53,288 bases of DNA from an uncultured Verrucomicrobiota bacterium (GCA_964449605.1 CAYUZG010000002.1:1-53288); one strand, 5' to 3'; shown: positions 14,504 through 38,175, counted from the stretch's first letter. The notes: generated from the letters alone by a model not told the origin. A program made the numbers and translations.

Positions 14504-14510
14504 TAGTTGA

Positions 14511-14547: not shown

Positions 14548-14765
14548 TGAGTTCTTCAGGCACGCACTGTATGTGGGGCCTGATCTGTTTGCGACGACTG
14601 CGCGAGCTTGCGCTCGCGTGTCAGAAGAGGTCCCGTCTTCCTTCGTCGCATCCGCCGTCGTGGGCGGTCATCCGCTCCCAAGGCCCGCTCGCTGCTGCGC
14701 TATCACGCTCCTTTCTGTGGTCGGGGTCGTGTCAGAGTTCCGCTATCATTGCTTACTCGCGTCGA

Positions 14766-23867: not shown

Positions 23868-24695
23868 TTACCCGCCCGTGCCGCCGAGCAGGGCCAGGAG
23901 CGAGGCCGGCGCGATGTTTGCCTGCGTGAGCATCGCGAGCGCCGTCTGCTGCAGGATCTGCAGCTTGGTCAGCTCGAGCTGCTCGAACGCGAGGTCGGCG
24001 TCCTCGATCGTGCTCAGGTTGGCGCGGGTGGTCACCTCGTTGAGGGCCGCTTGCTCGGCCTGGAACTCGAGCCGGTGGATCCAGGTGCCGATCACCTCTT
24101 CGTGCTTGAGGATCTCGGACAGCGCGTCGCTGATCGCCGTGATCGAGGCCTTGATGTTGTCGCGGGTGGCCTGGAGCGTTGTGTCGCCGGTGAGCACGAG
24201 GCTGTCGAGCCCGAGCGAGGAGAGCGTCGGGATGCTGCCGGTGAGCGCGACGTTCTCGAGCTCGCCGAGCGTGAAGCCGGTGTAGAGGATGGGGCTCACA
24301 CCGCTCTCGAGGATGTTCTGGATCTCCTCGATGAACCCGTTCAGGCCGATCTGCAGCCCGATGCGCTCGGCCGAGGTCACCCCGCCGCTGTCGGCCTGGT
24401 AGGCGATGTCGGACATCTCGGTCAGCAGGTCGACGATCTGCGAGAGGCGGCTGTCGTTGGTCTGCAGCCAGTTGGTGCCGCGCTCGATGTTGTGCGCCTG
24501 GTTCTGGTACTTCGAGATGTCGAGCCGCATCGTGCGGGCGATGTACCAGCCGCTCGGCGAGTCGGCGGCGCTGTTGAGCACGCGTCCCGTCGAGAGCCGT
24601 TCCGAGGACTGGAGAATCAGCTGGTTGAGGTCGGACAAGGTCTTGTACGCGCGCAGCGCAGTGATGTTGGTGCGAACTCGTGCTAGATCACTCAT
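23868..24695 (-). CDS. fliC: Flagellin (short, divergent), paralog 2
   Basis: MSDLARVRTNITALRAY...ERLSTGRVLNSAADSPSGWYI...LQTNDSRLS...LELTKLQILQQTALAMLTQAN. Confidence 0.9.
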   Translation of the reverse strand: MSDLARVRTNITALRAYKTLSDLNQLILQSSERLSTGRVLNSAADSPSGWYIARTMRLDISKYQNQAHNIERGTNWLQTNDSRLSQIVDLLTEMSDIAYQADSGGVTSAERIGLQIGLNGFIEEIQNILESGVSPILYTGFTLGELENVALTGSIPTLSSLGLDSLVLTGDTTLQATRDNIKASITAISDALSEILKHEEVIGTWIHRLEFQAEQAALNEVTTRANLSTIEDADLAFEQLELTKLQILQQTALAMLTQANIAPASLLALLGGTGG

Positions 24696-24702
24696 GGCTC
24701 AC

Positions 24703-24801
24703 GCCTCCTTGGCCTCTGGCTGCTCGATCTCTCGCCTGTCTGGCCAGTTGCCTCCTTGGCTCTGTTTTCTCGTGCAGCGCACTGTTCGTGCCTCCGGCAC
24801 G
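24703..24801 (-). promoter_or_regulatory. Flagellin 2 leader: duplicated GCCAAGGAGGC box plus a GGA-loop hairpin (candidate CsrA sites)
   Basis: The 11-nt direct repeat gcctccttggc (plus strand) occurs at 24703-24713, overlapping the SD, and at 24750-24760. The hairpin cgtgcc-GGA-ggcacg (minus strand) lies at 24787-24801. Confidence 0.4.
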
Positions 24802-24812
24802 CGGGCCGGGCC

Positions 24813-25634
24813 CTACGTGCCGATCATGCTCAAGATCGATCCTGGGAACGTGTTGCTCTGGGCCAGCATGGCGAGCGCCGTCTGCTGCAGGATCTGCAGC
24901 TTGGTCAGCTCGACCTGTTCGGCCGCCAGGTCGGCGTCCTGAATCGTGCTGAGGCTCGCCCGCTGATTCACCTCGTCGATGGCCGCCTCGGCCTGCTGGA
25001 ACTCGAGGCGGTGGATCCACGAGCCGATATTCTCCTCGTCCTTGAGGATGCGCGTCATCGCCGCCTCGATCGCGGCGAGCGCTGCGGTTGCGTTCTGGAT
25101 CGTGGTCGGGTCCGCCGAGCTCCCCGTCAGCGTCAAGCTCGTGATGCCGAGATCGCTCGTCGTCGGCACGCTCGAGCCGCTCAGTGAAACGGTGTCGAGG
25201 TTGCCGAGGCTGAAACCGGAGTAGAGAGCCGTGTCCACACCGCTCTGGAGAATCGTGTCGATCTCCTCGACGAAACCGTCCAGATCGATCTGGAGCGCGA
25301 CGCGCTCGTTCGACGTGATGCCGCCGGTGGCCGCCTGCGACGAGACCGCGTACATCTCCTCGAGCAGGTCGAGCACCTGCGACAGGCGCGAATCGTTCGT
25401 CTGAAGCCAGGTGATCCCGCGCTCGAGGTTCGCCTGCATCTCCTTGAGGCGCAAGATGTCGAGCTGCGTGGTCCGGGCGATGAAGTAGCCGCTCGGCGAG
25501 TCCGATGCCCGGTTGATCCGCTTGCCGCTCGATATGCGCTCGGCGACCGTCAGGATCCGCTTATTAATGTCGCTCAGAATGTGATAGGCCCGCAGCGACT
25601 GGATGTTCGTGCGGACTTTGAACAAGCTCGACAT
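24813..25634 (-). CDS. fliC: Flagellin (short, divergent), paralog 3
   Basis: From ATG 25634 (GGAGG RBS): MSSLFKVRTNIQSLRAY...ERISSGKRINRASDSPSGYFI...LQTNDSRLS...VELTKLQILQQTALAMLAQSN. The upstream part of ORF 24813..25736 is rejected. Confidence 0.9.
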   Translation of the reverse strand: MSSLFKVRTNIQSLRAYHILSDINKRILTVAERISSGKRINRASDSPSGYFIARTTQLDILRLKEMQANLERGITWLQTNDSRLSQVLDLLEEMYAVSSQAATGGITSNERVALQIDLDGFVEEIDTILQSGVDTALYSGFSLGNLDTVSLSGSSVPTTSDLGITSLTLTGSSADPTTIQNATAALAAIEAAMTRILKDEENIGSWIHRLEFQQAEAAIDEVNQRASLSTIQDADLAAEQVELTKLQILQQTALAMLAQSNTFPGSILSMIGT

Positions 25635-25706
25635 GACGCGCTCGGAGCCTCCGCTGCCGTCCACGCCCACCTGCACTGTGTGGGCTTTGCGCCGCGTCCG
25701 GACTGA

Positions 25707-25721
25707 GCAATGGGTGTGCCA
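25707..25721 (-). promoter_or_regulatory. Sigma54 promoter (exact consensus) for flagellin 3
   Basis: Minus strand reads TGGCAC-ACCCA-TTGC. It lies 73-87 nt upstream of the ATG at 25634. Confidence 0.7.
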
Positions 25722-25951
25722 GCAAGCGGGTGGCAAGGGATGCCGAGTGTGTAACTGCTTCGTGTAGCGGGTGTTATTGGTGTTGCTGTTTATGCACGGC
25801 CCGCGGTCTCACCCTGCGCATACGTGGAAGCTTCTGCCGATGGGTCGGCCCGCCGCGACCTTCTTTCCCTGCGCGCGGTGGCGCGCATACGACCGGTTTG
25901 GCCGCTTCGGCGACACAGGCGGGGTGTCCGGCATCAACTCGGGGGGTTCGG

Positions 25952-27298: not shown

Positions 27299-28117
27299 CT
27301 ACTTACCCGACAAGAGCCATTCGTGGTTCGGGTCGGTCCTCGGATAGAGCTTGCGGCCGCGGCCTGCCAGGAACCATAGGTAGTACAACCGGTATCCGGG
27401 ACCCGCGACGACGGGGTGGTATCCCTCGGGGATAGCGACCGCGTCGCCGTCCTGTATCGTGTAGGCCACGTCGAACGTTGCGCCGTCATAAAGCCGCTGC
27501 ATGCCGAAGCCCTGGCTCGGGTCCACCTTGAAGTAGTAGATCTCCTCCATGTCCGCCTCGTGCGGCGGCTCGTGCGCGTCGTGCTTGTGCGGCGGCGCGC
27601 TCGACCAGTTGCCGGGCGGGTTCATCGTCTCGCCGAGCACCAAGTATCGCGCATCCACGTTCTCGTAGAAGATGTCGTCGACCGTCCGGCTCCAGTTGTC
27701 CCGGCCGACGGCCTTCTGGCGCACGCCCGACGGCTCGACCAGGGCCGGCGCGCCCGGTGTGTCTGCCTCGTCAACCCGGCACCAGCACAGGGCCGCCTGG
27801 ACGTCGCTCAGCGCCGCTACCTTGAAGCCGCACCGGGGCGGCAGGTAGACGGCGTGCGCCTTGCCGGAGAACACGTTCTGCCTCGCGCCGACCTCGGCAA
27901 AGGCGGTCTTACCGGCCTCGACGCGGCAACGGCCTCCGAGCACAACAAGGCCTGCCTCTCTGTCACCTGTTTCGGCAGCATAATCTGTGCCTTCCGCCAG
28001 GCTGAGCAGCCCCAGACTGAGGCGTTTCAGGCCGGCGAATCCCGGCGGGACGACCTCTATGTACCCCTGCTTCAACGGCTTACGAACGTGAAAGCGCGGG
28101 CTCATCTCTTGCTGCAT
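27299..28117 (-). CDS. iolB: 5-deoxy-glucuronate isomerase-like cupin (IolB/KduI family)
   Basis: GNWSSAPPHKHDAHEPPHEADMEEIYYFKVDPSQGFGMQRLY...IPEGYHPVVAGPGYRLYYLWFLAG...DPNHEWLL closely follows the B. subtilis IolB pattern. ATG 28117 with a GGAGG RBS is preferred over the TTG at 28135. Confidence 0.8.
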   Translation of the reverse strand: MQQEMSPRFHVRKPLKQGYIEVVPPGFAGLKRLSLGLLSLAEGTDYAAETGDREAGLVVLGGRCRVEAGKTAFAEVGARQNVFSGKAHAVYLPPRCGFKVAALSDVQAALCWCRVDEADTPGAPALVEPSGVRQKAVGRDNWSRTVDDIFYENVDARYLVLGETMNPPGNWSSAPPHKHDAHEPPHEADMEEIYYFKVDPSQGFGMQRLYDGATFDVAYTIQDGDAVAIPEGYHPVVAGPGYRLYYLWFLAGRGRKLYPRTDPNHEWLLSGK

Positions 28118-28183
28118 CGACACGCCTCCAATCAACTGAATGTGCGTGGCCGCACCCAGGGTTCCCGCTGGCCGGCGCTCGCG

Positions 28184-29806
28184 CTAGCTGGCGCCCGCCA
28201 GCCCCTCGGCCAGGGCGTCGAGGTGCCTGCGGAAGTGCTTCTCGAGCGCGGCGTAGTAGTCCTCTTCGTGCGCTGCCAGGACCGCGCAGAGCCGGGCGCG
28301 GAAGTCGTGCTCCGGGCCCGACGTGAGCACCGACCCAAACGCGACGTGCAGCACCTGGCGCCACCCATCGTCGTCAAGGAGCGACTCGTACTGGTCGGGC
28401 GCGATCGCTGCCGGCTTGGGCATCCGGGTCGGGTCGGCCGAGACATGGTAGGTGCGCTTGTCCTCGGCATAGCGGCCGTGGGAGAACTCCAGGATCTCGC
28501 CGAATAGGCCGGCATCGCGCCGCGCAAGGACCCGCAACGCCTCAAGATACGTCGTGCCCGCCGTCTTGACGTGGAGCTTGTCGCCGGCGTGCTTCGTCAT
28601 GATCGGGTAGACGCTGAACTTGTCGCTGCCCGAGTGGATGCTCAGCCGATAGGCGTTGAACGTGTCTCGGATTGCCGCGTGGATCGCGAAGTCGCGCTCG
28701 AACGCGGCGAGGTCGCCCCTGTAGTCGATGCCCTTCTCGAACGCGCCCGGGAAGCGGAGCGCCAGGCTGTCGACGCGCATCTCGAGGCGGCGGAACTCGG
28801 AGGCAATGAACAGGTGCTCGAGCGGCGAGGTCGGCCAGTCGGTCTCGTCGAAGGAAACCTCCAGGTCGAAGCGGTCGCTGCGCTTCTCATCGAGCAGCGC
28901 CGCGAGCCCGGCGCACCGCGCGATGCCGGCCGAGTACTTGACGGCGCAGCGAACGATGCTCTCCTCGTCGAACGCCAGCTTCGCCGTATGCTGGCCGTGG
29001 CGATCGGTGACCGTCTCGCTCGAGCCTGTGTACTCGGCGAGCAGCTCTTCGGGCGAGGACCGGAGCGCCTCCCACGGCAGCGCCCGGAACGCCGCGCGCA
29101 GCGCCTCGTCGCTCAGCGTCTCCGGGTCTGTGATCACGTCGGACGGATCGAGCGTGAACATCGTGTACGGGAACGGCGAGACGCGCTCGATATCGTCGCG
29201 GGTCTTCAGATGGTCGGCGTCGGCGCCCCACAGGCCGGAGTAGCCCTCCTCGAGGATGCCCCAGACGGCGGTCGCCATCACGTCTTCCGGCGTGCGCGCC
29301 GTCCTGTCCATCTCGCGGATCGACTGCTGCGCGAACAGCGGGAAGTAGGCCGAGCCGGCAAGCGCGCGCACGTGGCCGGGCGTCGAGAGGCCGATGCGGT
29401 CGCCCGCGCCGAAACCGGCCTGGCCCGGGTTGGCCGACGGCCGGAGATGCGCAACCTCGCGCTGGAGGTAAGTAGCGTTCGCGTTCGAGCACGGACATAT
29501 ATGAAGCGTCAGGCTGCCGTCGCCGGCGCCGACGGTCTGGGTCACCTCGGGAGGGAGCCCGGAAACCGACCCGACCTGCGCGGCGACGACGAGCACCTTC
29601 TCCGACCCGTCGCGTACCAGAAAAAGCAGGCGCCCCGACTGGAGCAACGGCGAGCGGCTGTACAGGAGGAGGCCGGCGGCCGCGCACCGCTCGGCGATCG
29701 CCGATACCTTTGCCTGAGCTGCCTCGTCCCCTTCCCGTCCGAGGAAGTCGAGAAGCTCCTCGGAGCATCGAGCGAGCGCGTCCGTTCCTTCTCTGTTCTC
29801 AGACAC
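28184..29806 (-). CDS. Tagaturonate/fructuronate epimerase (UxaE) family protein
   Basis: Within ORF 28184..30289. GTG 29806 has a GGAAGGA RBS just after the SDR stop. Motifs recalled for the UxaE family: GFGAGDRIGLSTPGHVRAL...FAQQSIREM.RT.RT...GADADHLKT...SIHSGSDKFS.YP...HVKTAGTTYLEA. Confidence 0.6.
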   Translation of the reverse strand: MSENREGTDALARCSEELLDFLGREGDEAAQAKVSAIAERCAAAGLLLYSRSPLLQSGRLLFLVRDGSEKVLVVAAQVGSVSGLPPEVTQTVGAGDGSLTLHICPCSNANATYLQREVAHLRPSANPGQAGFGAGDRIGLSTPGHVRALAGSAYFPLFAQQSIREMDRTARTPEDVMATAVWGILEEGYSGLWGADADHLKTRDDIERVSPFPYTMFTLDPSDVITDPETLSDEALRAAFRALPWEALRSSPEELLAEYTGSSETVTDRHGQHTAKLAFDEESIVRCAVKYSAGIARCAGLAALLDEKRSDRFDLEVSFDETDWPTSPLEHLFIASEFRRLEMRVDSLALRFPGAFEKGIDYRGDLAAFERDFAIHAAIRDTFNAYRLSIHSGSDKFSVYPIMTKHAGDKLHVKTAGTTYLEALRVLARRDAGLFGEILEFSHGRYAEDKRTYHVSADPTRMPKPAAIAPDQYESLLDDDGWRQVLHVAFGSVLTSGPEHDFRARLCAVLAAHEEDYYAALEKHFRRHLDALAEGLAGAS

Positions 29807-29853
29807 GAGAGGAGTCCTTCCCTTAGCTTCCGACAATACGCCCGGCCGAGAGT

Positions 29854-30705
29854 CTATACACCGGCGAACGCACTGAACCCGCCGTCGACCGGGATGACCG
29901 CTCCGGTGACGAACGCCGCCGAGTCGGACGCGAGCCAGATGGCCACACCGACCAGGTCTTCGGGCTTGCCGAACACGCCCTGGGGCGTCGCGCCGATGAT
30001 CGTCTTGCCCCGGTCCGTGAGAACCTCCTTGCCGCCCTTCTCGGCGAACAGGAGGAAGTGGTTCTGCGCAGTGTCGAAGAACCCCGGCGCGATCGCGTTG
30101 ATGCGGATCTTCGGCGAGGCGTTCTGGGCCATGTCGACGGCCAACCACTGCGTGAAGTTGATGACGGCGGCCTTCGCAGCCGAATAGGCCGGGATCCGGG
30201 TGAGCGGCGTCATGCCTGCCATCGAGGCGATGTTGACGATGCAGCCCGCGCCCTGCTCGGCCATCGCCTTGCCAAACACCTGGCTGCACAGGACGGTTCC
30301 CATCAGGTTCAGATCGAAGACGCGCCGGAAGGCGTCCTCGGGCAGATCGGCGAACGTGACGCCCTCGGCCGGGTTCGTCGTCGCCTTCGGGTGGTTGCCG
30401 CCGGCGCCGTTGACGAGGATGTCGACGCGGCCCGCGCGCTCGACGATCTCCCCGAGAGCCGCCTCGATGCTGGCCCGGTCGAGGACGTCGCAGCGCAGCG
30501 GCGTGATGTTCTCGCTGCCGGCCTCAGCGCGGAGCCGTTCGGCCTGCTGGCGCGTTCGCTCTTCATCGATATCAAGCAGGAACACGCTGGCGCCGGCCCG
30601 GGCGTACCCGGCAGCGATCGCGCCGCACAGCACGCCTCCGCCACCCGTCAGGGCGGCCGCTTTGCCCGCCAGCGAAAACGTATCGGTACCGCGTTTCGGC
30701 ATCAT
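29854..30705 (-). CDS. Short-chain dehydrogenase/reductase (mannonate/fructuronate-reductase-like SDR)
   Basis: TGGGGVLCGAIA (TGxxxGxG), NGAGG, S-x12-YSAAKAA catalytic triad, PGFF..., C-terminal FVTGAVIPVDGGFSA. Confidence 0.85.
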   Translation of the reverse strand: MMPKRGTDTFSLAGKAAALTGGGGVLCGAIAAGYARAGASVFLLDIDEERTRQQAERLRAEAGSENITPLRCDVLDRASIEAALGEIVERAGRVDILVNGAGGNHPKATTNPAEGVTFADLPEDAFRRVFDLNLMGTVLCSQVFGKAMAEQGAGCIVNIASMAGMTPLTRIPAYSAAKAAVINFTQWLAVDMAQNASPKIRINAIAPGFFDTAQNHFLLFAEKGGKEVLTDRGKTIIGATPQGVFGKPEDLVGVAIWLASDSAAFVTGAVIPVDGGFSAFAGV

Positions 30706-30852: not shown

Positions 30853-31917
30853 TCAGACGTCGTCCCAGCGAATGGGGGCCATACGCGGGATGGCGCGTTT
30901 GGCGGTGCGGCCGAGGACTTCCCCGAGGGACTTCGGCGCGATCCCCTTGGCGGGCTTGAGGATGCGGATCGCCTCCTCGGTCAGCGCCTCGCCCGCCGCG
31001 ATGTCGCGCGCGGCAAAGAGGCCGCGCCGGCTGTCGACGAGGATCGAGCGTTCCGAGGCGGTCGGCGCTTTCTCCGCCGTGCCGCGGGCCTGCTCGACCC
31101 GGCGCACGGCGCTGACGAGGCGGGCAAGCTCGGCGGGATCGAGCGAGAGCTGCTGGTCCGGGCCGGGCATCTCTTTGTCGAGGGTGAAATGCTTCTCGAC
31201 GATGCAGGCGCCCATCGCGACGGCGGCGATCGCGACCTCGACGCCGAGCGTGTGGTCCGAGAAGCCGACGGGCACATCGAAGGCGTCGCGGAGCGTCGCC
31301 ATCGCGTTCAGGTTCACCTCGTCGTCCGCAGGCGGGTAGACGCTCGTGCACTGGAGCAGGATGATGTCGTCGTTGCCCGCGTCGCGGCAGCACGCGACCG
31401 CCTCGCCGACCTCGTCGATGGTCGACAGGCCCGTCGAGATGATGACCGGCAAGCCGGTCGCAGCCGCGCAGCGGATCAGCGGCAGGTGCGTCACGTCGCT
31501 GGAGGAGATCTTGAACGCCGGGGTGCCGAGCGACTGCAGGGGACCGACCATCCCGAGGTCGAATACCGAGGTGAAGAGCGTCATGCCCACGTCGCGGGCC
31601 GCGGCGAAGAGCCGCCCGTGCGCCTCGGGCGACAGCTCGAGGCTCTTGTACATCTCGTACGACGACTTCGTGCCGCCGGTGACGCCCTCGACCGCTTTCG
31701 TCTCGACGAGCTCGGTATCGCACATCTCGGCGGCCTGGAACGACTGGAACTTGATCGCGTCGGCGCCGGCCAGACGGGCCACCTCGATCATGCGAACGGC
31801 CGTGGCCAGGTCACCGTTGTGATTCACGCCGGCTTCGGCGACGAGGTAGGTCGGCTCGTCTGGCCCGATCGTGCGTCCGGCGATCGTCACGGCATGCACG
31901 GCGCAGTCTCCTGCCAC
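30853..31917 (-). CDS. Nonulosonic acid synthase (NeuB/PseI/LegI family)
   Basis: IGPDEPTYLVAEAGVNHNGDLATAVRMIEVARLAGADAIKFQ...PAFKISSSDVTHLPLI...PVIISTG...LLQCTSVYP...VGFSDHTLG...VEKHFTLD, plus a C-terminal SAF-like segment. The start is uncertain: GTG at 31917, 31899 or 31890. Confidence 0.85.
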   Translation of the reverse strand: MAGDCAVHAVTIAGRTIGPDEPTYLVAEAGVNHNGDLATAVRMIEVARLAGADAIKFQSFQAAEMCDTELVETKAVEGVTGGTKSSYEMYKSLELSPEAHGRLFAAARDVGMTLFTSVFDLGMVGPLQSLGTPAFKISSSDVTHLPLIRCAAATGLPVIISTGLSTIDEVGEAVACCRDAGNDDIILLQCTSVYPPADDEVNLNAMATLRDAFDVPVGFSDHTLGVEVAIAAVAMGACIVEKHFTLDKEMPGPDQQLSLDPAELARLVSAVRRVEQARGTAEKAPTASERSILVDSRRGLFAARDIAAGEALTEEAIRILKPAKGIAPKSLGEVLGRTAKRAIPRMAPIRWDDV

Positions 31918-31974: not shown

Positions 31975-33174
31975 TCAGGACGTGCTGGGCTCCGCGGGTT
32001 CTTCGGGCGTGCCGGGCTTGTCCGCGTCGGCCGACTGCCCCTCCGGCTCGTCAGGCTGTGCGTCGGCCTCATCGTCGGAGGCGGCGGTCTCGGCGGGCGC
32101 GAATAGCTCGTCAAGGGCCGATGTATCAACAGGCTTCTTCGCCGGTTTCTTCTGAGCCTTGGCGAGCACGTCGTCGAGCGACGGCGCCTGTTCCTTCCGC
32201 TTGGCTTCCTCTTCCTCCTTGGTGAGCGCATTCGCCATGAGCGCGTCGAGCTTGTCGTTCTCAGGTGGCGTGTGCACCACGGGTTTAGGCACGACTCGTG
32301 GCGGGGGCGGGGGCGCGACCGGTTCCACAGCCGCCGTCTCTTCCTCGACGGGTGGCTCGGCAACCGGCGGCTCCGTTTCCTCGGCGGCCGGGGCCTCTTC
32401 GAGCTCGTCCGTCTCGGCAAGTCCGCTCGTCTCGGCCAGTTCGCTGCTGGTCGCCGGCTTCTGGAACACGTCCTTATTGAGGCCGACCCACTCGGGGTTC
32501 TTCTTGAGCAGCTCGACGGTCCTGCCCAGCGAGACGATGCGGTCCGGACGGTGGAGACGCCGGTAGATCCGGCGCACGAGCTTCATGTCGTCCTTGGTGT
32601 CGACGGTGAGCCGGACCCCCTCGGGCATCCGGAAGCGTTCCTCGGCCTTGACGGTGACGATCTTGAACTCGTCCGGGTGCTCCATGATGTAGGGGTTGAC
32701 GTGCTCGCGCTGATGCGGCTGCGTGGCGAGTGCGTCCTGCTTGCGGAGCGCCTCGAGTGTGACCGCTTCGACGCCGGTGCCCAGGATGCAGCCCTCGACG
32801 TAGCAGTAGTCGGCCTTCTCCTCGCGCAGCTTTTCGACGCAGGCGTCAATGAAGCTCGGCTCGAACAGCGGGTTGTCCCCCGTGATGCGGACCACGTGCG
32901 TGGCGTCGACGAGGTTGGCGGCCGCGACGTACCGTTTCAGCACGTCGTGCTCGGAGCCGGCGAACCCGACGACCTGCCACTCGCGTGCCCGTTTGAGCAG
33001 GATGCGGTCGTCGGCGCTCGTGGTCGTTGCGATGACAATGGCATCGACCCGGTGCGCGTACCGCGTGCGCTCGACGATGTGGTACAGCATCGCGATGCCG
33101 GCAATGTCGTCGAGCACCTTGCTGGGATAGCGGGTGCTCCCCATGCGTGCTTGGATGATGGCGGCGGTTTTCAC
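31975..33174 (-). CDS. Cytidylyltransferase (SpsF/NeuA-type CMP-sugar synthetase) with a ~170-aa low-complexity C-terminal tail
   Basis: GTG start. KTAAIIQARMGSTRYPSKVL...VVRITGDNPLFEP...REHVNPYI...RLTVDTKDDMKLV. The same frame then continues through acidic, Pro- and Lys-rich sequence to the stop at 31975. Confidence 0.7.
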   Translation of the reverse strand: MKTAAIIQARMGSTRYPSKVLDDIAGIAMLYHIVERTRYAHRVDAIVIATTTSADDRILLKRAREWQVVGFAGSEHDVLKRYVAAANLVDATHVVRITGDNPLFEPSFIDACVEKLREEKADYCYVEGCILGTGVEAVTLEALRKQDALATQPHQREHVNPYIMEHPDEFKIVTVKAEERFRMPEGVRLTVDTKDDMKLVRRIYRRLHRPDRIVSLGRTVELLKKNPEWVGLNKDVFQKPATSSELAETSGLAETDELEEAPAAEETEPPVAEPPVEEETAAVEPVAPPPPPRVVPKPVVHTPPENDKLDALMANALTKEEEEAKRKEQAPSLDDVLAKAQKKPAKKPVDTSALDELFAPAETAASDDEADAQPDEPEGQSADADKPGTPEEPAEPSTS

Positions 33175-33204: not shown

Positions 33205-34191
33205 CTAGTAGGCCCGGCAGTATACGTCCACGCACTCGGCGCAGCCCGGCAGCTCGTCGGCCCGGCCCGCCAGGTGCATCGCCCGCATGTGCTCGATCCG
33301 TTCGCCGGTCCAGATCGACGCGAGCGACTCCTCGTACACGTTGCCGACCGCCGCGCGCGCGTCGATGTCCACGCAGCACGGCACCACGTCGCCCGAGCAG
33401 AGCACAATCAACTGCTGCCACAGGTGGCGACATGGCACGCGCGCTATCGCCGCGCCGCGCGCGTGGTCAAACATCTCGTTGCCTTCGCCGTACGAGGCGA
33501 TCTCGCCGACGCTCACATGATCGGCAACGCTGCTCCACTCGGCCCGGAACGCCTCGACCTCGCTGTCCGTGACGCCCGGCGCTCGGAGTGCGTGTATCCG
33601 GAGAAACGGTTTCGCGACGCCGTAGGCCTTCCGCAACTGTGCGAACCGAAGGATGTTGTCCCGGACCCGATCGTAGTACTTGCCTACCCCGCGGAGCAGC
33701 GCGTACGCATCCCGCGTGACGCCATCGAAGGACACGACGAGCGTATCAAGCCGCACCTCGATGAGCGCGCGCGATGCGGTTTCGTCGAGAAGGACCCCGT
33801 TCGTCGTCAGGTTGACAACAGGGACACCACGGGTCTTGGCCGCGTGGATCATCTCCGGGAGCCGCTCGTTCATGAGCGGCTCGCCGTGTTGATGCATCGA
33901 GAGATGGTATAGACCACCCTCGGCCGCTTCGTCAATCACCTTTTCGAACAGCTCGAAGGGCATGTCGGCCTTCGGCCGGCTCATCCGGTCGCGCGGGCAC
34001 ATCAAGCAGTTCAGCATGCAGCGGCTTGACGACTCGAGCATGATCTTGAGCGGGAAGTGCCGGACCACCTTGAGGTTGTAGCACGCCTCCATCGCGGCCA
34101 GGTATTCCTCGCGGGTTCGGATCGGCCGGTCGGCCAGATCGACAAACTCCGCCCCGGGAATCTGCTCGTCGTAGAAGTAGCGCTTGCGCAT
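33205..34191 (-). CDS. Radical SAM / SPASM-domain enzyme 1
   Basis: From ATG 34191 (AGGAG RBS). Radical SAM motif SSSRCMLNCLMCP (CX3CX2C), then GEPLMN. The C-terminal Cys-rich part reads CRHLWQQLIVLCSGDVVPCCVD....GNV...IW.......LPGCAECVDVYC. Confidence 0.8.
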   Translation of the reverse strand: MRKRYFYDEQIPGAEFVDLADRPIRTREEYLAAMEACYNLKVVRHFPLKIMLESSSRCMLNCLMCPRDRMSRPKADMPFELFEKVIDEAAEGGLYHLSMHQHGEPLMNERLPEMIHAAKTRGVPVVNLTTNGVLLDETASRALIEVRLDTLVVSFDGVTRDAYALLRGVGKYYDRVRDNILRFAQLRKAYGVAKPFLRIHALRAPGVTDSEVEAFRAEWSSVADHVSVGEIASYGEGNEMFDHARGAAIARVPCRHLWQQLIVLCSGDVVPCCVDIDARAAVGNVYEESLASIWTGERIEHMRAMHLAGRADELPGCAECVDVYCRAY

Positions 34192-34222
34192 CTCGCCCTG
34201 CTCCTGCCTGCGGTGTGCGCGG

Positions 34223-34984
34223 CTACTTGAGCGCGCCCTGCCGGCGCAGCTCAAAGATTGCCTCGCGCACGTTGTCAACTTGCCCCTGCTTCTCGGCTGT
34301 GTAGTCCGGGTAGTCCTCGTCGCGCTGGAAGTGGACCGACAGCCGGTTGAATATCACCAGGCATTGCTTGCCCAGCACGTCGCGGACCGTCATCGCCATC
34401 GACGGGTCCCAGCCACCGAGCGACTGGCCGAAGTCGGTCAGGTGCGGCATGATGCGCCGCCACCACGACTCGGTCGTCATCTCGAAGCCGGGCACGATGT
34501 AGCTGAGGAACCCGACGTATGGGCCCGCGACGATCGGCGTGAGGTTTTCGCGCCGGCGGCTGACCCACTCGAGGCCGCTGAAGTAGTCGTCGAGGCCCTG
34601 CCGCTTGAAGCCGACGACGATGCCACCCGCCTGCTCGAAGCGGTCCCAGTAGTCGCATGGGCCCATCCAGTCATCGGGCAGCAGCTCGTCGTCGTCGTTC
34701 TTCGCGATGAAATCGAAGCCCTGACCGAAGACGCAATGCTCGAGCAGGTACTGAGTCGCCCTTGTCACGCCGATGTTCTCGTCGCCGAGCACGACGGTGA
34801 GCTTCTCGTGTTTGGCGGCGGCCTTGCGCAGGTAGTCGGGCGTCGAATCACTGCTCGCGTTGTCGTAGACGAACAGGTGCAGGTCGTGCTCCGCGTCGTC
34901 GAGCTGCTCGAGGAGCGGTGTCAGCGTCCGCTCAGTGTACGGCCGACGATTGTACGAGACGATGCACAGCGCGATCCGATGCAT
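34223..34984 (-). CDS. Family 2 glycosyltransferase
   Basis: IALCIVSYNRRPYTERTL......LFVYDNASSDST..YL is the GT-A N-terminal signature. Confidence 0.7.
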   Translation of the reverse strand: MHRIALCIVSYNRRPYTERTLTPLLEQLDDAEHDLHLFVYDNASSDSTPDYLRKAAAKHEKLTVVLGDENIGVTRATQYLLEHCVFGQGFDFIAKNDDDELLPDDWMGPCDYWDRFEQAGGIVVGFKRQGLDDYFSGLEWVSRRRENLTPIVAGPYVGFLSYIVPGFEMTTESWWRRIMPHLTDFGQSLGGWDPSMAMTVRDVLGKQCLVIFNRLSVHFQRDEDYPDYTAEKQGQVDNVREAIFELRRQGALK

Positions 34985-36107
34985 GCTGCTTCTCCATCAG
35001 TGAGTGTTCGAGCTGATCCTCAAAGGCGTGCACGATGGCGTCCCACGAGCGCTGCCGGCTCCGCTCGACGCGTGCTTGCCGGCTCGCGTGGTCGTCCTGG
35101 CCGAGGGCGACGTCGATGGCGGCGACAAACTCGTCGGTGTCGTGCGCGAGCGCCACGTAGCGGTCGAGCTGGACAAGGTCCTCGAGCGGCGTGGCCACGA
35201 CTGGCTTGCCGGCACTCAGGTACTCGAAGACCTTCGTCGGGTTCGCCGACGCCGTGAACGCGTTCCGCTTGTAGGCGAGCACGCAGACGTCCATCGCCCG
35301 CACGTACGCCGGCAGCGCCTCGTACGGGCGCGCGCCCAGGAAACGGGCGTGCTGCTGCAGCCGCGGGTACTTGGCGAGATCGACGTCCGACATCACCGGG
35401 CCGACAAAGACAAACGACCACTCGGGCCGCTGCGCCGCGACGGCCTCGAGTATGTCGAGGTCGTCCTTGGTGGCATTGATCGAGCCGACCGAGCCGATCA
35501 CGGGCCAGGTGAGCCCGCGCATCTCGTCGGGCAGCTCGCCCGGCCGGCCCGCCGGCGCGAAGTGCTCGACATCGACGCCGGAGGGCAGGAGCGTGGTCCG
35601 GGCATTGAGCCGTCCGAGCCGGGTGAACAGCCCACGGCTCGTGGCGAAGACCAGGTCGGCCCGCCGCACCAACTGCTCCTCCTGCTGCCGCAGGAAGCTC
35701 GACGGCAGTTTCGGGATCGAAGCCCAGTCGTCGTTGCAGTCGTAGACGACAACGCGCTCTGACAATGAACCGGCAATTTGTGCTGCAAAAGGCGTGCCGA
35801 CCACGGTGATCACGTCGCGGAAGTTGTTGCGGCGCATCACACGCCGGATCCGGCGGCGCACAAGCGTCTCGTTAAGCCTGCGGACCGCGTGGCTCCATCG
35901 GAGACCGGGCAGCACGATCGGCTCGAGCACGAGCACGCCTTCCTCGCGCCTGAGCCGGCCCCAGCGCCAGGGCCGGCGCCATTTGCGCGCCCGCGTCGGC
36001 TCGACGTACAGCACCCGGTGCCGGCGCGCGAGCCGGGTCGTCAGGTGCTGAGGTCGGAACCGGACGAAGCCCCGGAAGTCGTAGCCCGACAGGTAGACGA
36101 TGTCCAT
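34932..36107 (-). CDS. GT-B glycosyltransferase (family 1/4 type), paralog b
   Basis: From ATG 36107 (MDIVYLSGYDF). Motifs RPQHLTTRLARRHRVLYVEP, ...FVGP..., NPTKVFEYLSAGKPVVATP (EX7E-like). Clear paralog of 37030..38175. Overlaps neighbours by 67 nt (5') and 53 nt (3'). Confidence 0.7.
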   Translation of the reverse strand: MDIVYLSGYDFRGFVRFRPQHLTTRLARRHRVLYVEPTRARKWRRPWRWGRLRREEGVLVLEPIVLPGLRWSHAVRRLNETLVRRRIRRVMRRNNFRDVITVVGTPFAAQIAGSLSERVVVYDCNDDWASIPKLPSSFLRQQEEQLVRRADLVFATSRGLFTRLGRLNARTTLLPSGVDVEHFAPAGRPGELPDEMRGLTWPVIGSVGSINATKDDLDILEAVAAQRPEWSFVFVGPVMSDVDLAKYPRLQQHARFLGARPYEALPAYVRAMDVCVLAYKRNAFTASANPTKVFEYLSAGKPVVATPLEDLVQLDRYVALAHDTDEFVAAIDVALGQDDHASRQARVERSRQRSWDAIVHAFEDQLEHSLMEKQHASDRAVHRLVQSSAVH

Positions 36108-37033
36108 GTTCCCTCGCCGTCTGCGGTGTACATCGTACAGGTGCGACACGCCGCGGGCGGGCGGCCCGCGGCAAGCTCGTCACGGAATCTGCGATAGGCG
36201 TCGCTGTTCCAGATCGTCTCGAACGGCTGCTCGAGCACGTTGCCGAAGTTGATCGCGCGCGGATCGGGCCGTTGGCAGCACGGCGTGACGAAGCCCTGCC
36301 ACGTGACGTACACGCCGCCGCGATGCCACGGGCAGTTGGCGTACCCCGCCGTCGGCCCAAACACGCCGGCCGCCAGGTTCCACCGCCGCGACAGCGCGTT
36401 GACCTCGGCCTGCATCATCTCGATCTCACTCGCCGTGAGGCCACGGGGATTGCTCGGCGACGGCTGCTCGCGCCCGCCGACGTCCCAGAACTGCACCACG
36501 TTCAGGTTGAGCCGGTCGAGGCCGAGGCGACTCACCAGCTCGAACAGCGCGCTGAGCGCGGCGCGGTCGGCGCTCGCCACAACGGCGTTGGCGCTCAGCT
36601 CGAGCAAGTGGCCTCGGCGGTTGCGCGCCTCGACGAGCACGCGGACCCGCTCGACGACGTCGTCGAGCCGGGCCCCGCCGCGGATGGCCGCGAACTGCTC
36701 GGCATCGGCGCTATCGAGCGACAGCTCGAGCCGGTCGGCCACCGAGGCGAGCGCCTCGGCGTTCTGCGCGTTGATCTTCGTCACGTTCAGGGCCGAGTAC
36801 GCGCGGATCCCACGGGCCCGCAGCGCCCGCATCATGTCGAGGAAGTCCGGGTTGAGCATCGGCTCGCCGAGCCCCTGGAGCTTGACGGCGCGCAGCCCGT
36901 CGAGCTCGTCGAGGATGTGCGCGAACTGGCCGAGCGTCATGTGCCCCACGGTGTCGAGCCGGTCGCGCTCGCACATGGCGCAGCGCAGGTTGCAGACCGT
37001 CGTCGGCTCGATCTGCGCAAACGGCACGCTCAT
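36041..37033 (-). CDS. Radical SAM / SPASM-domain enzyme 2
   Basis: From ATG 37033 (ATGA overlap with the upstream stop). Radical SAM motif EPTTVCNLRCAMCER (CX3CX2C), then GLGEPMLNP. C-terminal CPWHRGGVYVTWQGFVTPCCQRP...FGNV...IW......ACRTC. Confidence 0.8.
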   Translation of the reverse strand: MSVPFAQIEPTTVCNLRCAMCERDRLDTVGHMTLGQFAHILDELDGLRAVKLQGLGEPMLNPDFLDMMRALRARGIRAYSALNVTKINAQNAEALASVADRLELSLDSADAEQFAAIRGGARLDDVVERVRVLVEARNRRGHLLELSANAVVASADRAALSALFELVSRLGLDRLNLNVVQFWDVGGREQPSPSNPRGLTASEIEMMQAEVNALSRRWNLAAGVFGPTAGYANCPWHRGGVYVTWQGFVTPCCQRPDPRAINFGNVLEQPFETIWNSDAYRRFRDELAAGRPPAACRTCTMYTADGEGTWTSSTCRATTSGASSGSDLST

Positions 37034-38175
37034 AGGCGGGCCTCCACGAGCTCGAGCATCTCGCCGGCCACGCTCTCCCACGAGCGCTCGGCGGCCAGCC
37101 GCTGGTTCTCGTCGAGCGGGAGCGTTGCCTCACCCGCGAGCACTCGCTCGACACAGCGGATGAAGTCGGCCCGGTCGCGAGCGATCGCCAGCCGGTCGAG
37201 GTAATAGGCCTTCACCTCGTCGAGTGCGCTCGAGACGACCGGCTTGCCCGCCGCCATGTATTCGAGCAGCTTCGTCGGGTTGACGTGGTGCGTCGCCGCG
37301 TTCACCTTGTAGGGGACTATTGCCACGTCGAACGCGGCCACGTAACGCGGCAGCTCCTGGTACGGCTTGAGCCCGAGGAAACGGATGTTCGGGTAGCGAA
37401 GCGTGCGCAGCAGCACGTCGTCCTGGACCGGCCCGACAAGCACGATCGACCATTCCGGGTGGGCGCGCGCCATCTGCTCGAGGAGCTCGCAGTCGAGCCG
37501 TGCCTCGTCGATCAGGCCCGTGTAGCCAATGATCGGGCGCGGAATGCCCGCGATGTCCTCGGGCGGCTCGGGCGGCGGGCCGGCGAAGTGCTCGTAGTCG
37601 ACGCCGCACGTGAAAACGTGGCAGTTGGCGTTCCACTCGCGGCGCGTCTCGTAGACCTTGCCCGTGCCGGCGAACAACACGTCCGCCTGCGACGCGAGCA
37701 CCCGGTCGCGGACGATGGTTGACCGCGGCGTCTTGTCGAACAGCTCCCAGGCGTCGGTGCAGTCGTAGACGACGGCCGCCTCACCAAGGCGCCCGACGAG
37801 GTACTGCGACATCGGCGCATAGAACCAGAGCACGAACTGCTCGAAACCGAGCCGGCGGATCGTGCGTCGAACGAGGCGTCGGATTCGGCGCTCATTGAGC
37901 CACTGCACGCCGGGCAGCGTTCGCCCGAACGGCAGCACGAGCGGCGAGTAGACCCACAGATTGCTGTCCACCCAGCGGAACGGCCTCCAGTGGCGCTCGC
38001 TCGGCTTGCTGAGCACGTGGGCAATCGAGATCGGCCGGACAAACAGCACGCGGTGGTTCCGGCCGAACCGCGTCATCAGCTGCTGAGGTCGTGCCCAGAC
38101 GCCGCTCCACGAGCTCTGGGCTATGCACACGATGTCGTATGAGGTCACCCGGCGCCTCCCGTGTCGCTCGAACAT
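37030..38175 (-). CDS. GT-B glycosyltransferase (family 1/4 type), paralog a
   Basis: RPQQLMTRFGRNHRVLFVRP, IIGYTGLIDE, LVGPV, NPTKLLEYMAAGKPVVSSA. Confidence 0.75.
   Translation of the reverse strand: MFERHGRRRVTSYDIVCIAQSSWSGVWARPQQLMTRFGRNHRVLFVRPISIAHVLSKPSERHWRPFRWVDSNLWVYSPLVLPFGRTLPGVQWLNERRIRRLVRRTIRRLGFEQFVLWFYAPMSQYLVGRLGEAAVVYDCTDAWELFDKTPRSTIVRDRVLASQADVLFAGTGKVYETRREWNANCHVFTCGVDYEHFAGPPPEPPEDIAGIPRPIIGYTGLIDEARLDCELLEQMARAHPEWSIVLVGPVQDDVLLRTLRYPNIRFLGLKPYQELPRYVAAFDVAIVPYKVNAATHHVNPTKLLEYMAAGKPVVSSALDEVKAYYLDRLAIARDRADFIRCVERVLAGEATLPLDENQRLAAERSWESVAGEMLELVEARL

Follow-up and report, generated by a model that had tools for sequence, protein, structure and literature searches.

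BtrN, the 2-deoxy-scyllo-inosamine dehydrogenase of the butirosin pathway (PDB 4M7T), is a radical SAM (rSAM) enzyme whose substrate is a carbohydrate-like small molecule and whose step precedes transamination. BlsE, the cytosylglucuronate decarboxylase of blasticidin S (PDB 7VOB), works after a glycosyltransferase and on the latter's product, in the order BlsD/BlsE. The SPASM maturases (PqqE, AlbA, MftC, anSME, SuiB, and CteB) share a radical SAM core and a Cys-rich C-terminal domain, while SkfB is an example of a twitch domain used for peptide chemistry. On the flagellar side, Maf proteins are the canonical transferases of nonulosonate to flagellin. Here, we describe a block of glycosyltransferase and rSAM genes that is probably an accessory glycan-tailoring block on the flagellar nonulosonic-acid glycosylation locus of an uncultured Verrucomicrobiota lineage.

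The whole stretch of DNA that was analyzed (53,288 nucleotides, hereafter the window) encodes a complete flagellar supercluster with FlhB, FlhA, FlhF, FlhG, FliA, and FlgM, together with FlgF/G/A/H/I/K/L, FliD/S/W, three flagellins, and two Maf genes. The features of interest are the following.

37030..38175, minus strand: GT1a, a GT-B, TuaH-like glycosyltransferase, first gene of the block (Pfam Glyco_trans_1_4, Glyco_trans_1_2, Glycos_transf_1)
36041..37033, minus strand: rSAM2, a radical SAM protein with a twitch-type C-terminal domain (Pfam Radical_SAM and SPASM, above gathering score)
34932..36107, minus strand: GT1b, a paralog of GT1a (Pfam Glyco_trans_1_4 / Glycos_transf_1; NCBIfam as GT1a)
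34223..34984, minus strand: GT2, an accessory GT-A family 2 glycosyltransferase (Pfam Glycos_transf_2)
33205..34191, minus strand: rSAM1, an accessory, BtrN-like twitch radical SAM protein (Pfam Radical_SAM and SPASM, above gathering score)
31975..33174, minus strand: cytidylyltransferase, putative CMP-sugar synthetase (Pfam CTP_transf_3, 1.4e-30)
30853..31917, minus strand: NeuB-family nonulosonate synthase with SAF domain (Pfam NeuB, 2.8e-84, and SAF)
29854..30705, minus strand: SDR oxidoreductase, D-mannonate-oxidoreductase-like (NCBIfam NF006132, 334 bits, above the cut-off of 281)
28184..29806, minus strand: UxaE-like tagaturonate/fructuronate epimerase (Pfam UxaE, 2.6e-137)
27299..28117, minus strand: IolB/KduI-family isomerase (Pfam KduI; NCBIfam IolB equivalog, 237.5 bits, above the cut-off of 205)
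23868..25736, minus strand: two tandem short flagellin genes, presumed glycosylation targets (Pfam Flagellin_N, Flagellin_C)
13676-14563: third flagellin gene (Pfam Flagellin_N, Flagellin_C)
7699..9621, minus strand: candidate Maf-type flagellin nonulosonate transferase (Pfam MptE-like, 7.5e-38, and Maf_flag10_N)
3111..4670, minus strand: second Maf/MptE-like protein (Pfam MptE-like, 7.8e-35)

The gene organization of the block is as the sequence-only reading had described it, with five ORFs on the minus strand in the order GT1a, rSAM2, GT1b, GT2, and rSAM1, on which ORFs, Pfam domains, and GC3 (0.85-0.90 for each gene, a coding-type value) agree. The reported overlaps are real, since there is a GGAGG-like ribosome-binding site at every proposed start and independent gene calls in a relative that is 70-76% identical (L001) reproduce them identically: the start of rSAM2 lies on the stop of GT1a (ATGA, 4 nt), the end of rSAM2 overlaps the start of GT1b by 67 nt, and GT1b overlaps GT2 by 53 nt. 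rSAM2 is translationally coupled to both flanking GT1 genes. Purifying selection acts on each of the five, and their dN/dS values of 0.13-0.36 are similar to that of NeuB and somewhat higher than that of FliA. As also proposed, the block runs straight into the cytidylyltransferase and the NeuB-family synthase, identified by Pfam and the only such genes in the window. A search upstream of GT1a found neither a sigma-28 nor a sigma-70 consensus. The divergently transcribed neighbor of GT1a encodes a periplasmic-looking TPR protein.

The locus resembles Maf/NeuB/CMP-synthetase islands of the Campylobacter, Helicobacter, Aeromonas, and Caulobacter type in encoding a NeuB-family synthase, a CTP_transf_3 protein, and two Maf/MptE-like proteins in the same flagellar cluster as short Ser/Thr-rich flagellins, which in mature form have no Cys and have a center rich in Ser/Thr. 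Unlike these islands, the window lacks precursor genes for Pse, Leg, or Neu. It also goes beyond them with its TuaH-like GT1 pair, GT2, two twitch rSAMs, IolB, UxaE, and SDR, none of which, to our knowledge, is part of a described flagellin-glycosylation pathway, and a literature search agrees. The synthase scores 357 bits against NCBIfam NeuB_NnaB and 311 bits against PseI, both below the cut-offs, so the sugar cannot be assigned, while the Maf-type candidate at 7699..9621 weakly matches a PseD domain model. The cytidylyltransferase carries an Ala/Glu/Pro-rich tail of ~170 residues, and the UxaE-like gene starts with a GTG at 29806 that is preceded by a ribosome-binding site.

The two GT1 proteins, taken early on as paralogs, are indeed 37% identical, far beyond chance (E 2e-65). 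Both motif pairs quoted for them are present, RPQQLMTRF..NHRVLFVRP / RPQHLTTRL..RHRVLYVEP and NPTKLLEYMAAGKPVV / NPTKVFEYLSAGKPVV. The best NCBIfam match of GT1a is TuaH (113 bits, far below the cut-off), and the TuaH-like family to which both belong is broad and occurs in many non-flagellar settings. Orthologs of GT1a (46-92% identity) occupy the same slot after fliA, and those of GT1b (42-92%) always follow rSAM2 or, in L014, come directly after GT1a.

Comparison of relatives reveals a modular series. In the same flagellar slot, L014 has GT1-GT1-CTase-NeuB, where CTase is the cytidylyltransferase, without any rSAM. L004, L015, and L027 have GT1-rSAM2-GT1-CTase, followed in the longer contigs (L004 and L015) by a CgeB-like glycosyltransferase, NeuB, and IolB. 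The full set, GT1a-rSAM2-GT1b plus GT2-rSAM1, is found in the window, L001, L010, L012, L019, and L024, which are also the only compared loci with GT2. The latter is missing from L004, L014, and L015, and from three loci in which rSAM1 is either reduced to a remnant (92 residues in L011, a partial match of ~50-55% identity in L018) or missing too (L021). rSAM2 lies between GT1 genes in 17/17 contigs carrying an ortholog (at least 41% identity), this and the other co-occurrence counts being drawn from few, phylogenetically related contigs. GT2 and rSAM1 are both accessory. The conserved core, composed of GT1a, GT1b, the cytidylyltransferase, and NeuB, comes right after fliA and before flgM and the flagellins, a place that it keeps down to 42-58% identity. 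The two twitch-type rSAMs joined this core as separate modules, the second of which, GT2 + rSAM1, is gained and lost as a pair. The nearby sugar genes vary as well: SDR is present in L001, L012, and L021 and missing from L018, L004, and L015; the UxaE-like gene is found only where the locus also has GT2 and rSAM1; and IolB is in every rSAM2-bearing locus whose contig covers the region downstream of NeuB, overlaps NeuB in L015, and is missing from the rSAM-free L014.

The duplicated GT+rSAM unit put forward in the sequence-only reading is not supported, since the GT1 pair exists without an rSAM in L014. Moreover, rSAM1 and rSAM2 are only 24% identical (E 6e-14), which is superfamily-level similarity, and each is nearer to a different outside family (39-41% identity for rSAM1, 29-35% for rSAM2). 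GT1a and GT1b are old paralogs, the same pair being present in that rSAM-free relative, the two rSAMs are members of different subfamilies, and the true units are GT1a-rSAM2-GT1b and GT2-rSAM1.

This series also bears on whether the block makes another glycoconjugate (a glycan or glycolipid of the cell envelope, or a glycan attached elsewhere on the flagellum) and is merely encoded in or co-regulated with the flagellar cluster, Maf proteins alone glycosylating flagellin. The two Maf genes elsewhere in the window, the many non-flagellar TuaH-like GT1s, the divergent periplasmic-looking TPR protein, and an rSAM2 sister family in GT2/GT9/carbamoyltransferase clusters resembling envelope-glycan loci are compatible with this scenario. 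However, the GT1 pair, cytidylyltransferase, and NeuB stay between fliA and flgM/flagellins at 42-58% identity, the block is unbroken with the only NeuB and cytidylyltransferase genes of the window, and the window encodes no initiating phosphoglycosyltransferase, flippase, polymerase, or exporter, which makes this scenario unlikely.

As for rSAM1, the best solved relative of its family by profile and fold is BtrN, with a profile match of 1e-34 (7e-19 for the next) and the first rank in Foldseek. A CX3CX2C motif is common to both proteins, and so are four C-terminal Cys positions (C..PC..CxxC); in BtrN, these four bind one auxiliary cluster in the twitch domain. In rSAM1, C58, C62, C65, C254, C272, C317, and C320 are invariant, and C273 almost so. 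In contrast, identity to BtrN is only about 17%, rSAM1 is ~80 residues longer with an extra N-terminal helical extension, and it is found in a flagellar nonulosonate locus, beside a cytidylyltransferase, rather than in an aminoglycoside cluster. The rSAM1 family is not flagellum-specific, since outside flagella it occurs in polysaccharide, nonulosonate, and CDP-alcohol clusters, where its members repeatedly adjoin or fuse with cytidylyltransferases. For example, L009 has the order CTase-rSAM-aminotransferase-epimerase, while L097 and L098 have the gene beside NTP_transferase/CDP-alcohol transferase genes, L097 with an additional aminotransferase fusion. Adjoining aminotransferases, a BtrN-like trait, are thus seen in L009 and L097, whereas rSAM1 in the window has none. 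A similar association is captured by TIGR04321 ("spiro-SPASM"), the C-terminal half of which (positions 222-506) matches rSAM1 (3e-23, 82 bits) and the N-terminal half (positions 21-231) the adjacent cytidylyltransferase (3.6e-7, 29 bits), both scores being far below the cut-off of 250. TIGR04321 is one protein, whereas here there are two separate genes in reverse order, rSAM first. Likewise, P0161 is a fused cytidylyltransferase-like, radical SAM, and SPASM/twitch protein, from a polysaccharide cluster that also has NeuB, NeuC-like, and CTP_transf_3 genes. Our literature search found no paper mentioning TIGR04321.

For rSAM2, which has invariant C14, C18, C21, C234, C252, C253, C296, and C299, an AF2 model (pLDDT 80.5) has BlsE as its top structural match (E 4.4e-14, TM 0.66-0.67), with SuiB and DesII next and nearly equal by fold. 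BlsE is also among the top profile matches (3e-14), slightly outscored by PqqE and also behind BtrN, but identity is 15% and the BlsE NCBIfam model is absent from the top 25 families of rSAM2. That BlsE acts after a glycosyltransferase parallels the GT1a-rSAM2-GT1b order, and the uronate-type enzymes UxaE, SDR, and IolB near rSAM2 extend the parallel. The rSAM2 sister family (68 loci) lies amid GT2, GT9, methyltransferase, and carbamoyltransferase genes.

Both rSAMs had been assigned to the SPASM type. The quoted motifs are present (CMLNCLMC and CNLRCAMC at the N terminus, GDVVPCC / GFVTPCC and CAEC / CRTC at the C terminus), and Pfam sees a SPASM domain, yet the full SPASM Cys set is absent and both keep just the BtrN-type set C..CC..CxxC, with four to five conserved C-terminal Cys that align with the single-cluster twitch domain of BtrN. 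This set implies one auxiliary cluster for each protein, unlike SPASM maturases, in which a 7-Cys motif serves two. The idea that the two rSAMs mature a cofactor or metalloenzyme for a neighboring enzyme stems from their best NCBIfam matches, TIGR04317 and TIGR04311 (about 95-106 bits), a tungsten-cofactor oxidoreductase maturase and a Geobacter metalloenzyme maturase family. Since these scores are far below the cut-offs of 380-400, every member of the broad rSAM1 family gives these same weak matches in any context, and no tungsten/molybdenum oxidoreductase or other plausible client is encoded nearby, we consider it highly improbable.

Of the two roles originally proposed, sugar tailoring fits the evidence, while modification of the flagellin polypeptide is weakened. 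In the latter, one or both rSAMs would behave like SPASM/twitch maturases toward flagellin or a different protein of the flagellum, with epimerization, cross-linking, or oxidation of side chains as possible reactions, either preceding or following glycosylation. This would be consistent with the Pfam SPASM domains, the proximity of the flagellin genes, PqqE as best PDB match of the rSAM2 profile, and the presence of SuiB, CteB, SkfB, and anSME among the top structural matches. In Foldseek, these four peptide enzymes come within one to three E-value orders of the sugar-acting matches for both rSAMs, and maturases in general are comparable to sugar-acting enzymes in fold similarity, so structure alone cannot settle the substrate class. 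However, unlike SPASM maturases, neither rSAM has an RRE domain, a PqqD-like domain or partner ORF, or a precursor peptide gene, for which the contiguous or overlapping genes of the block leave no space, and only the single-cluster twitch set is kept. The Cys-free mature flagellins exclude thioether or formylglycine-from-Cys chemistry on these proteins. Relatives of both rSAMs are in sugar, nucleotidyl, and glycosyltransferase clusters, with fusions of rSAM1-family members to cytidylyltransferases in non-flagellar sugar clusters and a fused GT2-rSAM-SPASM protein in L013. Finally, close relatives lose rSAM1 yet keep their flagellins, and the L014 locus does without any rSAM. A polypeptide substrate is therefore quite improbable.

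The twitch Cys set, the lack of RRE and precursor, the Cys-free flagellins, and the sugar-cluster relatives together favor sugar or glycan tailoring, and most likely both rSAMs edit sugar rather than flagellin protein. NeuB and the cytidylyltransferase would produce a CMP-activated nine-carbon sugar, and the flagellin O-glycan would be built in the cytoplasm by Maf and/or the GT1 and GT2 enzymes. In each rSAM, a 5'-deoxyadenosyl radical would take a hydrogen off a sugar carbon, and the single auxiliary [4Fe-4S] cluster would accept the second electron. The BtrN-like rSAM1 would most likely act on a cytidylyl-activated sugar, oxidizing one of its secondary alcohols to a ketone that could pass to a neighboring epimerase, reductase, or isomerase. 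rSAM2 would most likely edit the sugar set by one GT1 before the other acts, possibly by oxidation, epimerization, dehydration, or BlsE-like decarboxylation. As the sequence-only reading had anticipated, our literature search found no paper tying radical SAM enzymes to flagellin or nonulosonate glycosylation. Sugar editing by these rSAMs, if true, would add an as yet undescribed chemistry to flagella.

All five genes of the block are found on the minus strand exactly where the sequence-only reading had placed them, and every motif that it quoted is present in the ORFs.

Genes of the block

37030-38175, minus strand: GT1a, group-1 (GT-B) glycosyltransferase (Pfam)
36041-37033, minus strand: rSAM2, Radical_SAM + SPASM (Pfam)
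34932-36107, minus strand: GT1b, group-1 (GT-B) glycosyltransferase (Pfam)
34223-34984, minus strand: GT2, family 2 glycosyltransferase (Pfam)
33205-34191, minus strand: rSAM1, Radical_SAM + SPASM (Pfam)

Gene overlaps of 4 nt (ATGA), 67 nt, and 53 nt were confirmed as well, and they recur unchanged in independent gene calls from a 70-76%-identical relative. Since neighboring genes either overlap or are separated by 31 nt at most, there is no space for a small ORF between them. All proposed starts have a GGAGG-like ribosome-binding site in front of them, and third-codon-position G+C in the five genes (0.85-0.90) matches that of the surrounding genes, in a window that has a G+C content of ~67% and carries almost all its genes on the minus strand. 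When compared with four relatives, the five genes display dN/dS values of 0.13-0.36, that is, purifying selection, comparable to NeuB and somewhat higher than FliA. GT1a and GT1b are distant TuaH relatives only, with 113.5 and 103.5 bits, respectively, against the ≥550 bits that the TuaH equivalog model (NF047676) requires, and a single-sequence search of the PDB with GT1a returned zero matches. The last ~28 residues of rSAM2 (TADGEGTWTSSTCRATTSGASSGSDLST, window 36041-36125, minus strand) are modeled with a pLDDT <50 and mostly encoded by the 67 nt overlapping the start of GT1b; this tail, which is shorter and different in orthologs with 41-43% identity, may exist solely as a consequence of the gene overlap.

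Downstream of rSAM1 and in the same orientation, we find a CTP_transf_3 cytidylyltransferase (CTase, Pfam 1.4e-30) and a NeuB+SAF synthase (NeuB, Pfam 2.8e-84), followed by an SDR, a UxaE-like epimerase, an IolB-equivalog isomerase, an HDOD protein, FlgM, and two flagellins. The flagellins are 5-7 kb downstream on the same strand, an arrangement kept in relatives. Elsewhere, the window carries the genes of FliP, FliR, FlhB, FlhA, FlhF, FlhG, FliA, FlgF/G/A/H/I, a rod-binding protein, FlgN, FlgK, FlgL, FliW, a third flagellin, FliD, and FliS. Beyond fliS, a second modification region (window 3111-9621, minus strand) has a Maf/MptE-like gene at each end.

Genes of the second modification region

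7699-9621, minus strand: Maf/MptE-like (PF01973 + PF20157)
7074-7832, minus strand: small protein with a C-methyltransferase C-terminal-like match, between the Maf genes
5677-7008, minus strand: DUF362 protein, between the Maf genes
4667-5680, minus strand: NHL-repeat protein, between the Maf genes
3111-4670, minus strand: Maf/MptE-like (PF01973)

Because one flagellar window thus holds a NeuB-family synthase, a CMP-sugar-synthetase-type gene, flagellins, and Maf transferase genes, it was fair to describe the block as lying inside a flagellin-glycosylation island, and the locus is, judging by gene content, a recognizable flagellar nonulosonate glycosylation island. In contrast to described islands, the genes scanned with Pfam in the 53-kb window include none of the precursor genes (PseB/C/H/G, LegB/C/H/G, and NeuC), NeuB reaches neither the NeuB nor the PseI equivalog cut-off, and the window adds a TuaH-like GT1 pair, a GT2, uronate/inositol-type enzymes, and two twitch radical SAM enzymes. 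The precursor pathway genes may lie elsewhere in the genome of this organism, which is known from metagenome-assembled genomes (MAGs) only.

Several other features of the window deserve mention. Divergently from GT1a, a 639-residue protein consisting almost entirely of TPR repeats, with a signal-peptide-like N terminus, is encoded at 38295-40214 (plus strand); it is kept in the window's clade (64-93% identity) and missing in the lineages of L004, L015, and L014, three loci of relatives. Two HDOD proteins, one encoded divergently at the left end (1189-3145 region, plus strand) next to a response-regulator/HATPase_c_2 fusion, the other between IolB and flgM (26363-27298, minus strand), may be motility regulators. 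The σ28 consensus (TAAA-N14-16-CCGATAW) is not found anywhere in the window. A near-consensus promoter (TAAA-N15-GCCGATGT, window ~26375-26410, minus strand) lies ~50 nt upstream of flgM, within the 3' end of the HDOD gene, and this is the sole case: upstream of GT1a, neither a comparable site nor a σ70-like site was found.

Both rSAM1 and rSAM2 belong to the radical SAM superfamily. Their PF04055 scores exceed the cut-off, their CX3CX2C motifs (CMLNCLMC, that is, C58/C62/C65 in rSAM1, and CNLRCAMC, that is, C14/C18/C21 in rSAM2) are invariant in family alignments, and their AF2 models display alternating β/α core elements. The SPASM-type C terminus in the sequence-only reading has to be revised. 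While both proteins score above the PF13186 (SPASM) cut-off, neither exhibits the seven-Cys motif of a full SPASM domain with two auxiliary clusters (CX9-15GX4C ... CX2CX5CX3C ... C). In the C-terminal part of rSAM1, C254, C272, C317, and C320 are invariant and C273 nearly so, the invariant residues in rSAM2 are C234, C252, C253, C296, and C299, and neither family alignment shows a conserved Cys beyond the CX2C; the terminal C325 of rSAM1 is conserved in close relatives only. This corresponds to a twitch pattern, defined by four Cys (C ... β-hairpin C ... CX2C) that match, in alignment, the residues binding the auxiliary cluster in BtrN from the butirosin pathway. A residue-level alignment of rSAM1 with BtrN pairs PCRH with SCM, PCC with PCF, and CAEC with CKNC, and the Cys spacing is the same in rSAM2. 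Because the conserved Cys coincide with the four residues that ligate the one auxiliary cluster in BtrN, the two proteins are predicted to be twitch-type (truncated SPASM) enzymes.

Comparison with solved structures identifies their nearest folds. For rSAM1, the family profile matches BtrN best (1e-34), followed by MoaA (7e-19) and DesII (1e-17), and BtrN is also the top Foldseek match of its AF2 model (pLDDT 86). The placement of rSAM2 is less decisive. Its profile, which was required since a single-sequence PDB search gave no match, finds PqqE (2e-21), then BtrN (5e-19) and BlsE from the blasticidin S pathway (3e-14), while its AF2 model (pLDDT 80.5) matches BlsE first in Foldseek, with SuiB and DesII close behind. 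Structure-based classification therefore names the closest folds and leaves sugar- and peptide-acting relatives unseparated, their top E-values being about one order apart. rSAM1 has an N-terminal extension of ~45 residues with two helices, and in neither protein did Pfam or the AF2 models reveal an RRE or any other extra domain. None of the curated NCBIfam models is passed. The best matches, at 80-106 bits against cut-offs of 250-400, are to a tungsten-cofactor maturase, a Geobacter metalloenzyme maturase, and spiro-SPASM. Since these fall so far under the cut-offs, we dropped the candidate role of cofactor maturase that two of the names evoke, and we regard it as extremely improbable.

The sequence-only reading had also proposed a duplicated GT+rSAM unit. 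GT1a and GT1b are indeed paralogs (37% identity, E 2e-65). rSAM1 and rSAM2 share only 24% identity (E 6e-14), and each has nearer relatives in a family outside the locus, namely stand-alone proteins of other lineages for rSAM1 (39-41% identity) and a large soil-metagenome family for rSAM2 (29-35% identity). We compared among relatives the slot that follows fliA, a 106-residue protein, and a lipoprotein-like gene. L014, in which GT1a is 46% identical, reads GT1-GT1-CTase-NeuB-FlgM, both rSAM and IolB being missing. Five loci with a 41-43%-identical rSAM2 (L004, L015, L026, L027, and L028) have GT1-rSAM2-GT1 in common, followed, in the only two whose contigs reach far enough (L004 and L015), by CTase, a CgeB-like GT, NeuB, and IolB. 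Within the window's own clade (70-92% identity), the full set is present in the window, L001, L010, L012, L019, and L024. In L011, GT2 is lost and rSAM1 is reduced to a 92-residue remnant (residues 76-167) without either Cys motif; L018 has no GT2 and only a partial rSAM1 match (~50-55% identity); L021 lacks both genes. Wherever its flanks are visible, rSAM2 is bordered by GT1 genes (17/17 contigs with an ortholog of at least 41% identity), the preceding GT1 always matching GT1a best and the following one GT1b. A recent tandem duplication of a GT+rSAM unit is ruled out by the identity values and the rSAM-free L014. From the slot comparison and the GT1 flanking of rSAM2, we conclude that GT1 was duplicated long ago and independently of the rSAMs, that the actual units are GT1a-rSAM2-GT1b and GT2-rSAM1, and that both rSAMs were added onto a GT1/GT1/CTase/NeuB core that is itself conserved. 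The locus works otherwise than initially framed.

Between NeuB and the flagellins, three genes (window 27299-30705, minus strand) are of the uronate/inositol-catabolism type; genes of this type also occur in L004, L015, L018, and L021. One encodes an IolB equivalog (237.5 bits, cut-off 205), and the SDR passes the D-mannonate oxidoreductase model. IolB, which is missing from the rSAM-free L014, occurs in every rSAM2-bearing locus whose contig covers the region downstream of NeuB, and it overlaps the NeuB stop in L015, while the UxaE-like epimerase is found only in loci with GT2 and rSAM1. It may be that the three enzymes provide NeuB with an unusual substrate, uronate-derived or keto, or remodel such a substrate for it.

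The relatives of rSAM1 provide information on what such an enzyme might act upon. Membership of TIGR04321 (spiro-SPASM) entails ≥250 bits over the whole protein and a fused N-terminal cytidylyltransferase-like domain. rSAM1 is not a member, aligning at 82 bits with the C-terminal half only, and the adjacent CTase aligns at 29 bits with the N-terminal half. Hence, in contrast to the single fused spiro-SPASM protein, the homologous halves are split into two genes in the window, which is a domain-fusion ("Rosetta-stone") pointer to sugars. P0161, a 524-residue rSAM1 relative, likewise has a fused cytidylyltransferase-rSAM architecture. It belongs to a non-flagellar polysaccharide cluster with an initiating phosphoglycosyltransferase, a GT2, WbqC, a second rSAM, an epimerase, a PIG-L deacetylase, an FdtA-like cupin, a stand-alone CTP_transf_3, a NeuC-like epimerase, and NeuB. 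In locus L009, the rSAM1-family context consists of HAD, CTP_transf_3, rSAM, aminotransferase, and epimerase/dehydratase genes. The BtrN-like rSAM1 family is large (739 representative clusters at E<1e-30), uncharacterized, and repeatedly linked to cytidylyltransferases; two diverse alignments of it lack a conserved stretch of 7-10 columns.

Relatives of rSAM1 occur in other settings as well. The nearest outgroup (39-41% identity), in L097 (839-7811) and L098 (10001-12400), adjoins NTP_transferase and CDP-alcohol phosphatidyltransferase genes, fused in L098, and these loci resemble a pathway for a CDP-activated polyol or cyclitol head group. L097 also has an NTP_transf_3-aminotransferase fusion, a methyltransferase, and two tandem rSAM copies, and L098 a DUF362 gene with ferredoxin-like motifs near the rSAM1 relative. 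On L008, a phage-like contig with many small ORFs and a NUMOD3 protein, an rSAM1-family gene, a CTP_transf_3-GT2 fusion, and a DAHP_synth_1/KdsA-like gene (3866-12402) suggest that a virus encodes a keto-deoxy-sugar pathway that includes a radical SAM reaction. Nothing relevant surrounds the distant homologs P0020 (lipid/MMPL), P0054 (next to PhyH), and P0062 (Sphingosinicella, next to an M19 peptidase). In the window, the CTase has a C-terminal tail of ~170 residues (31975-32480, minus strand) that is Ala/Glu/Pro-rich and of low complexity (AEETEPPVAEPPVEEE...); the tail is missing in the 261-aa ortholog in L014.

As for rSAM2, its orthologs are restricted to uncultured Verrucomicrobiota MAGs and related metagenome contigs, and a genome scan picked up three Verrucomicrobiota MAGs and, beyond these, just a single distant locus in Omnitrophota. 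Its sister family (29-35% identity) is found in 68 soil-metagenome loci (L029-L096), with GT2 (37 loci), GT9 (29), methyltransferase (25), a second GT2 (23), and carbamoyltransferase (20) as neighbors. The conserved set, which comprises two GT2, a GT9 heptosyltransferase-like protein, a SAM methyltransferase, and a carbamoyltransferase, appears to be an undescribed and widespread gene cluster. On the Omnitrophota MAG contig L013, a single 655-residue protein is a GT2-radical SAM-SPASM fusion (5053-7020, minus strand). Beside it, a polysaccharide pyruvyl transferase, a B12-binding radical SAM protein, and two more rSAM/SPASM genes (7216-12277, plus strand) make this a glycan cluster unusually rich in radical enzymes.

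Two roles had been envisaged for the rSAMs, tailoring of the sugar or modification of the flagellin polypeptide. Besides the split CTase-rSAM1 pair, the first is backed by the rSAM1-family contexts and the GT-rSAM linkage seen in the L013 fusion and the GT2/GT9 neighbors of the sister family, and also by the patchy occurrence of rSAMs on the constant GT1/GT1/CTase/NeuB core, a pattern typical of tailoring enzymes. The second could draw on the existence of peptide maturases among twitch and SPASM enzymes, on PqqE being the best profile match of rSAM2, and on structural scores that fail to discriminate substrate class. The hallmarks of a RiPP or protein maturase are a peptide-recognition element (RRE/PqqD-like, as a domain or as a partner) and a neighboring gene for a precursor or client protein. 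Here Pfam detects Radical_SAM and SPASM only, there is no precursor peptide gene, and the mature flagellins, which have Ser/Thr-rich centers, contain zero Cys; we thus see no sign of peptide-directed chemistry, and polypeptide modification is quite improbable. With the PqqE match and the non-discriminating structures weighed against the sugar lines, we consider it probable, and not more than that, that the rSAMs perform sugar or glycan tailoring. That the block makes a non-flagellin glycoconjugate is rather unlikely.

How such tailoring could proceed can be outlined. NeuB would condense PEP with a six-carbon aldehyde, CTase would activate the product with CTP, and Maf proteins and/or GT1a, GT1b, and GT2 would assemble the flagellin O-glycan in the cytoplasm. 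The BtrN-like rSAM1 would abstract a hydrogen at a carbinol carbon of the cytidylyl-activated sugar to generate a ketone, its auxiliary cluster taking the second electron. The keto-sugar could be processed by the UxaE-like epimerase, the SDR, and the IolB-like isomerase, and could be transferred or extended by GT2. rSAM2, translationally coupled to both GT1s, would edit the sugar added by one GT1 before the other acts; the glycosyltransferase BlsD reportedly precedes BlsE, a precedent for this order. We offer only tentatively, as a scheme that may well prove wrong, that a CMP-activated or flagellin-linked nine-carbon sugar is edited in this way, by rSAM2 between two GT steps and by rSAM1, which with IolB/UxaE/SDR would reshape a nonulosonate or a uronate-derived analog.

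A full-text search with partial coverage of the literature found nothing that connects flagellin or nonulosonate glycosylation with radical SAM enzymes and no mention of spiro-SPASM. The locus is a good, testable lead for new sugar enzymology rather than a new category of system, and since one slot occurs in nature with zero, one, or two rSAM modules, it offers a ready comparative experiment. Sialic-acid-like glycosylation of flagellin affects filament assembly, motility, and immune recognition, and to our knowledge the described pathways use conventional two-electron enzymes throughout. A conserved, selected rSAM pair in such a locus points to sugar chemistry beyond ordinary enzymes, candidates being oxidation, epimerization, deoxygenation, or decarboxylation at unactivated carbons. 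If rSAM sugar editing is true, it would represent a class of radical-tailored flagellar glycan not described so far, and the BtrN-like family adjoining or fused to cytidylyltransferases would constitute a general, uncharacterized anaerobic route for tailoring nucleotide-activated sugars. One solved member of the rSAM1 family could annotate many polysaccharide and nonulosonate clusters, including those of the spirochaete spiro-SPASM proteins.
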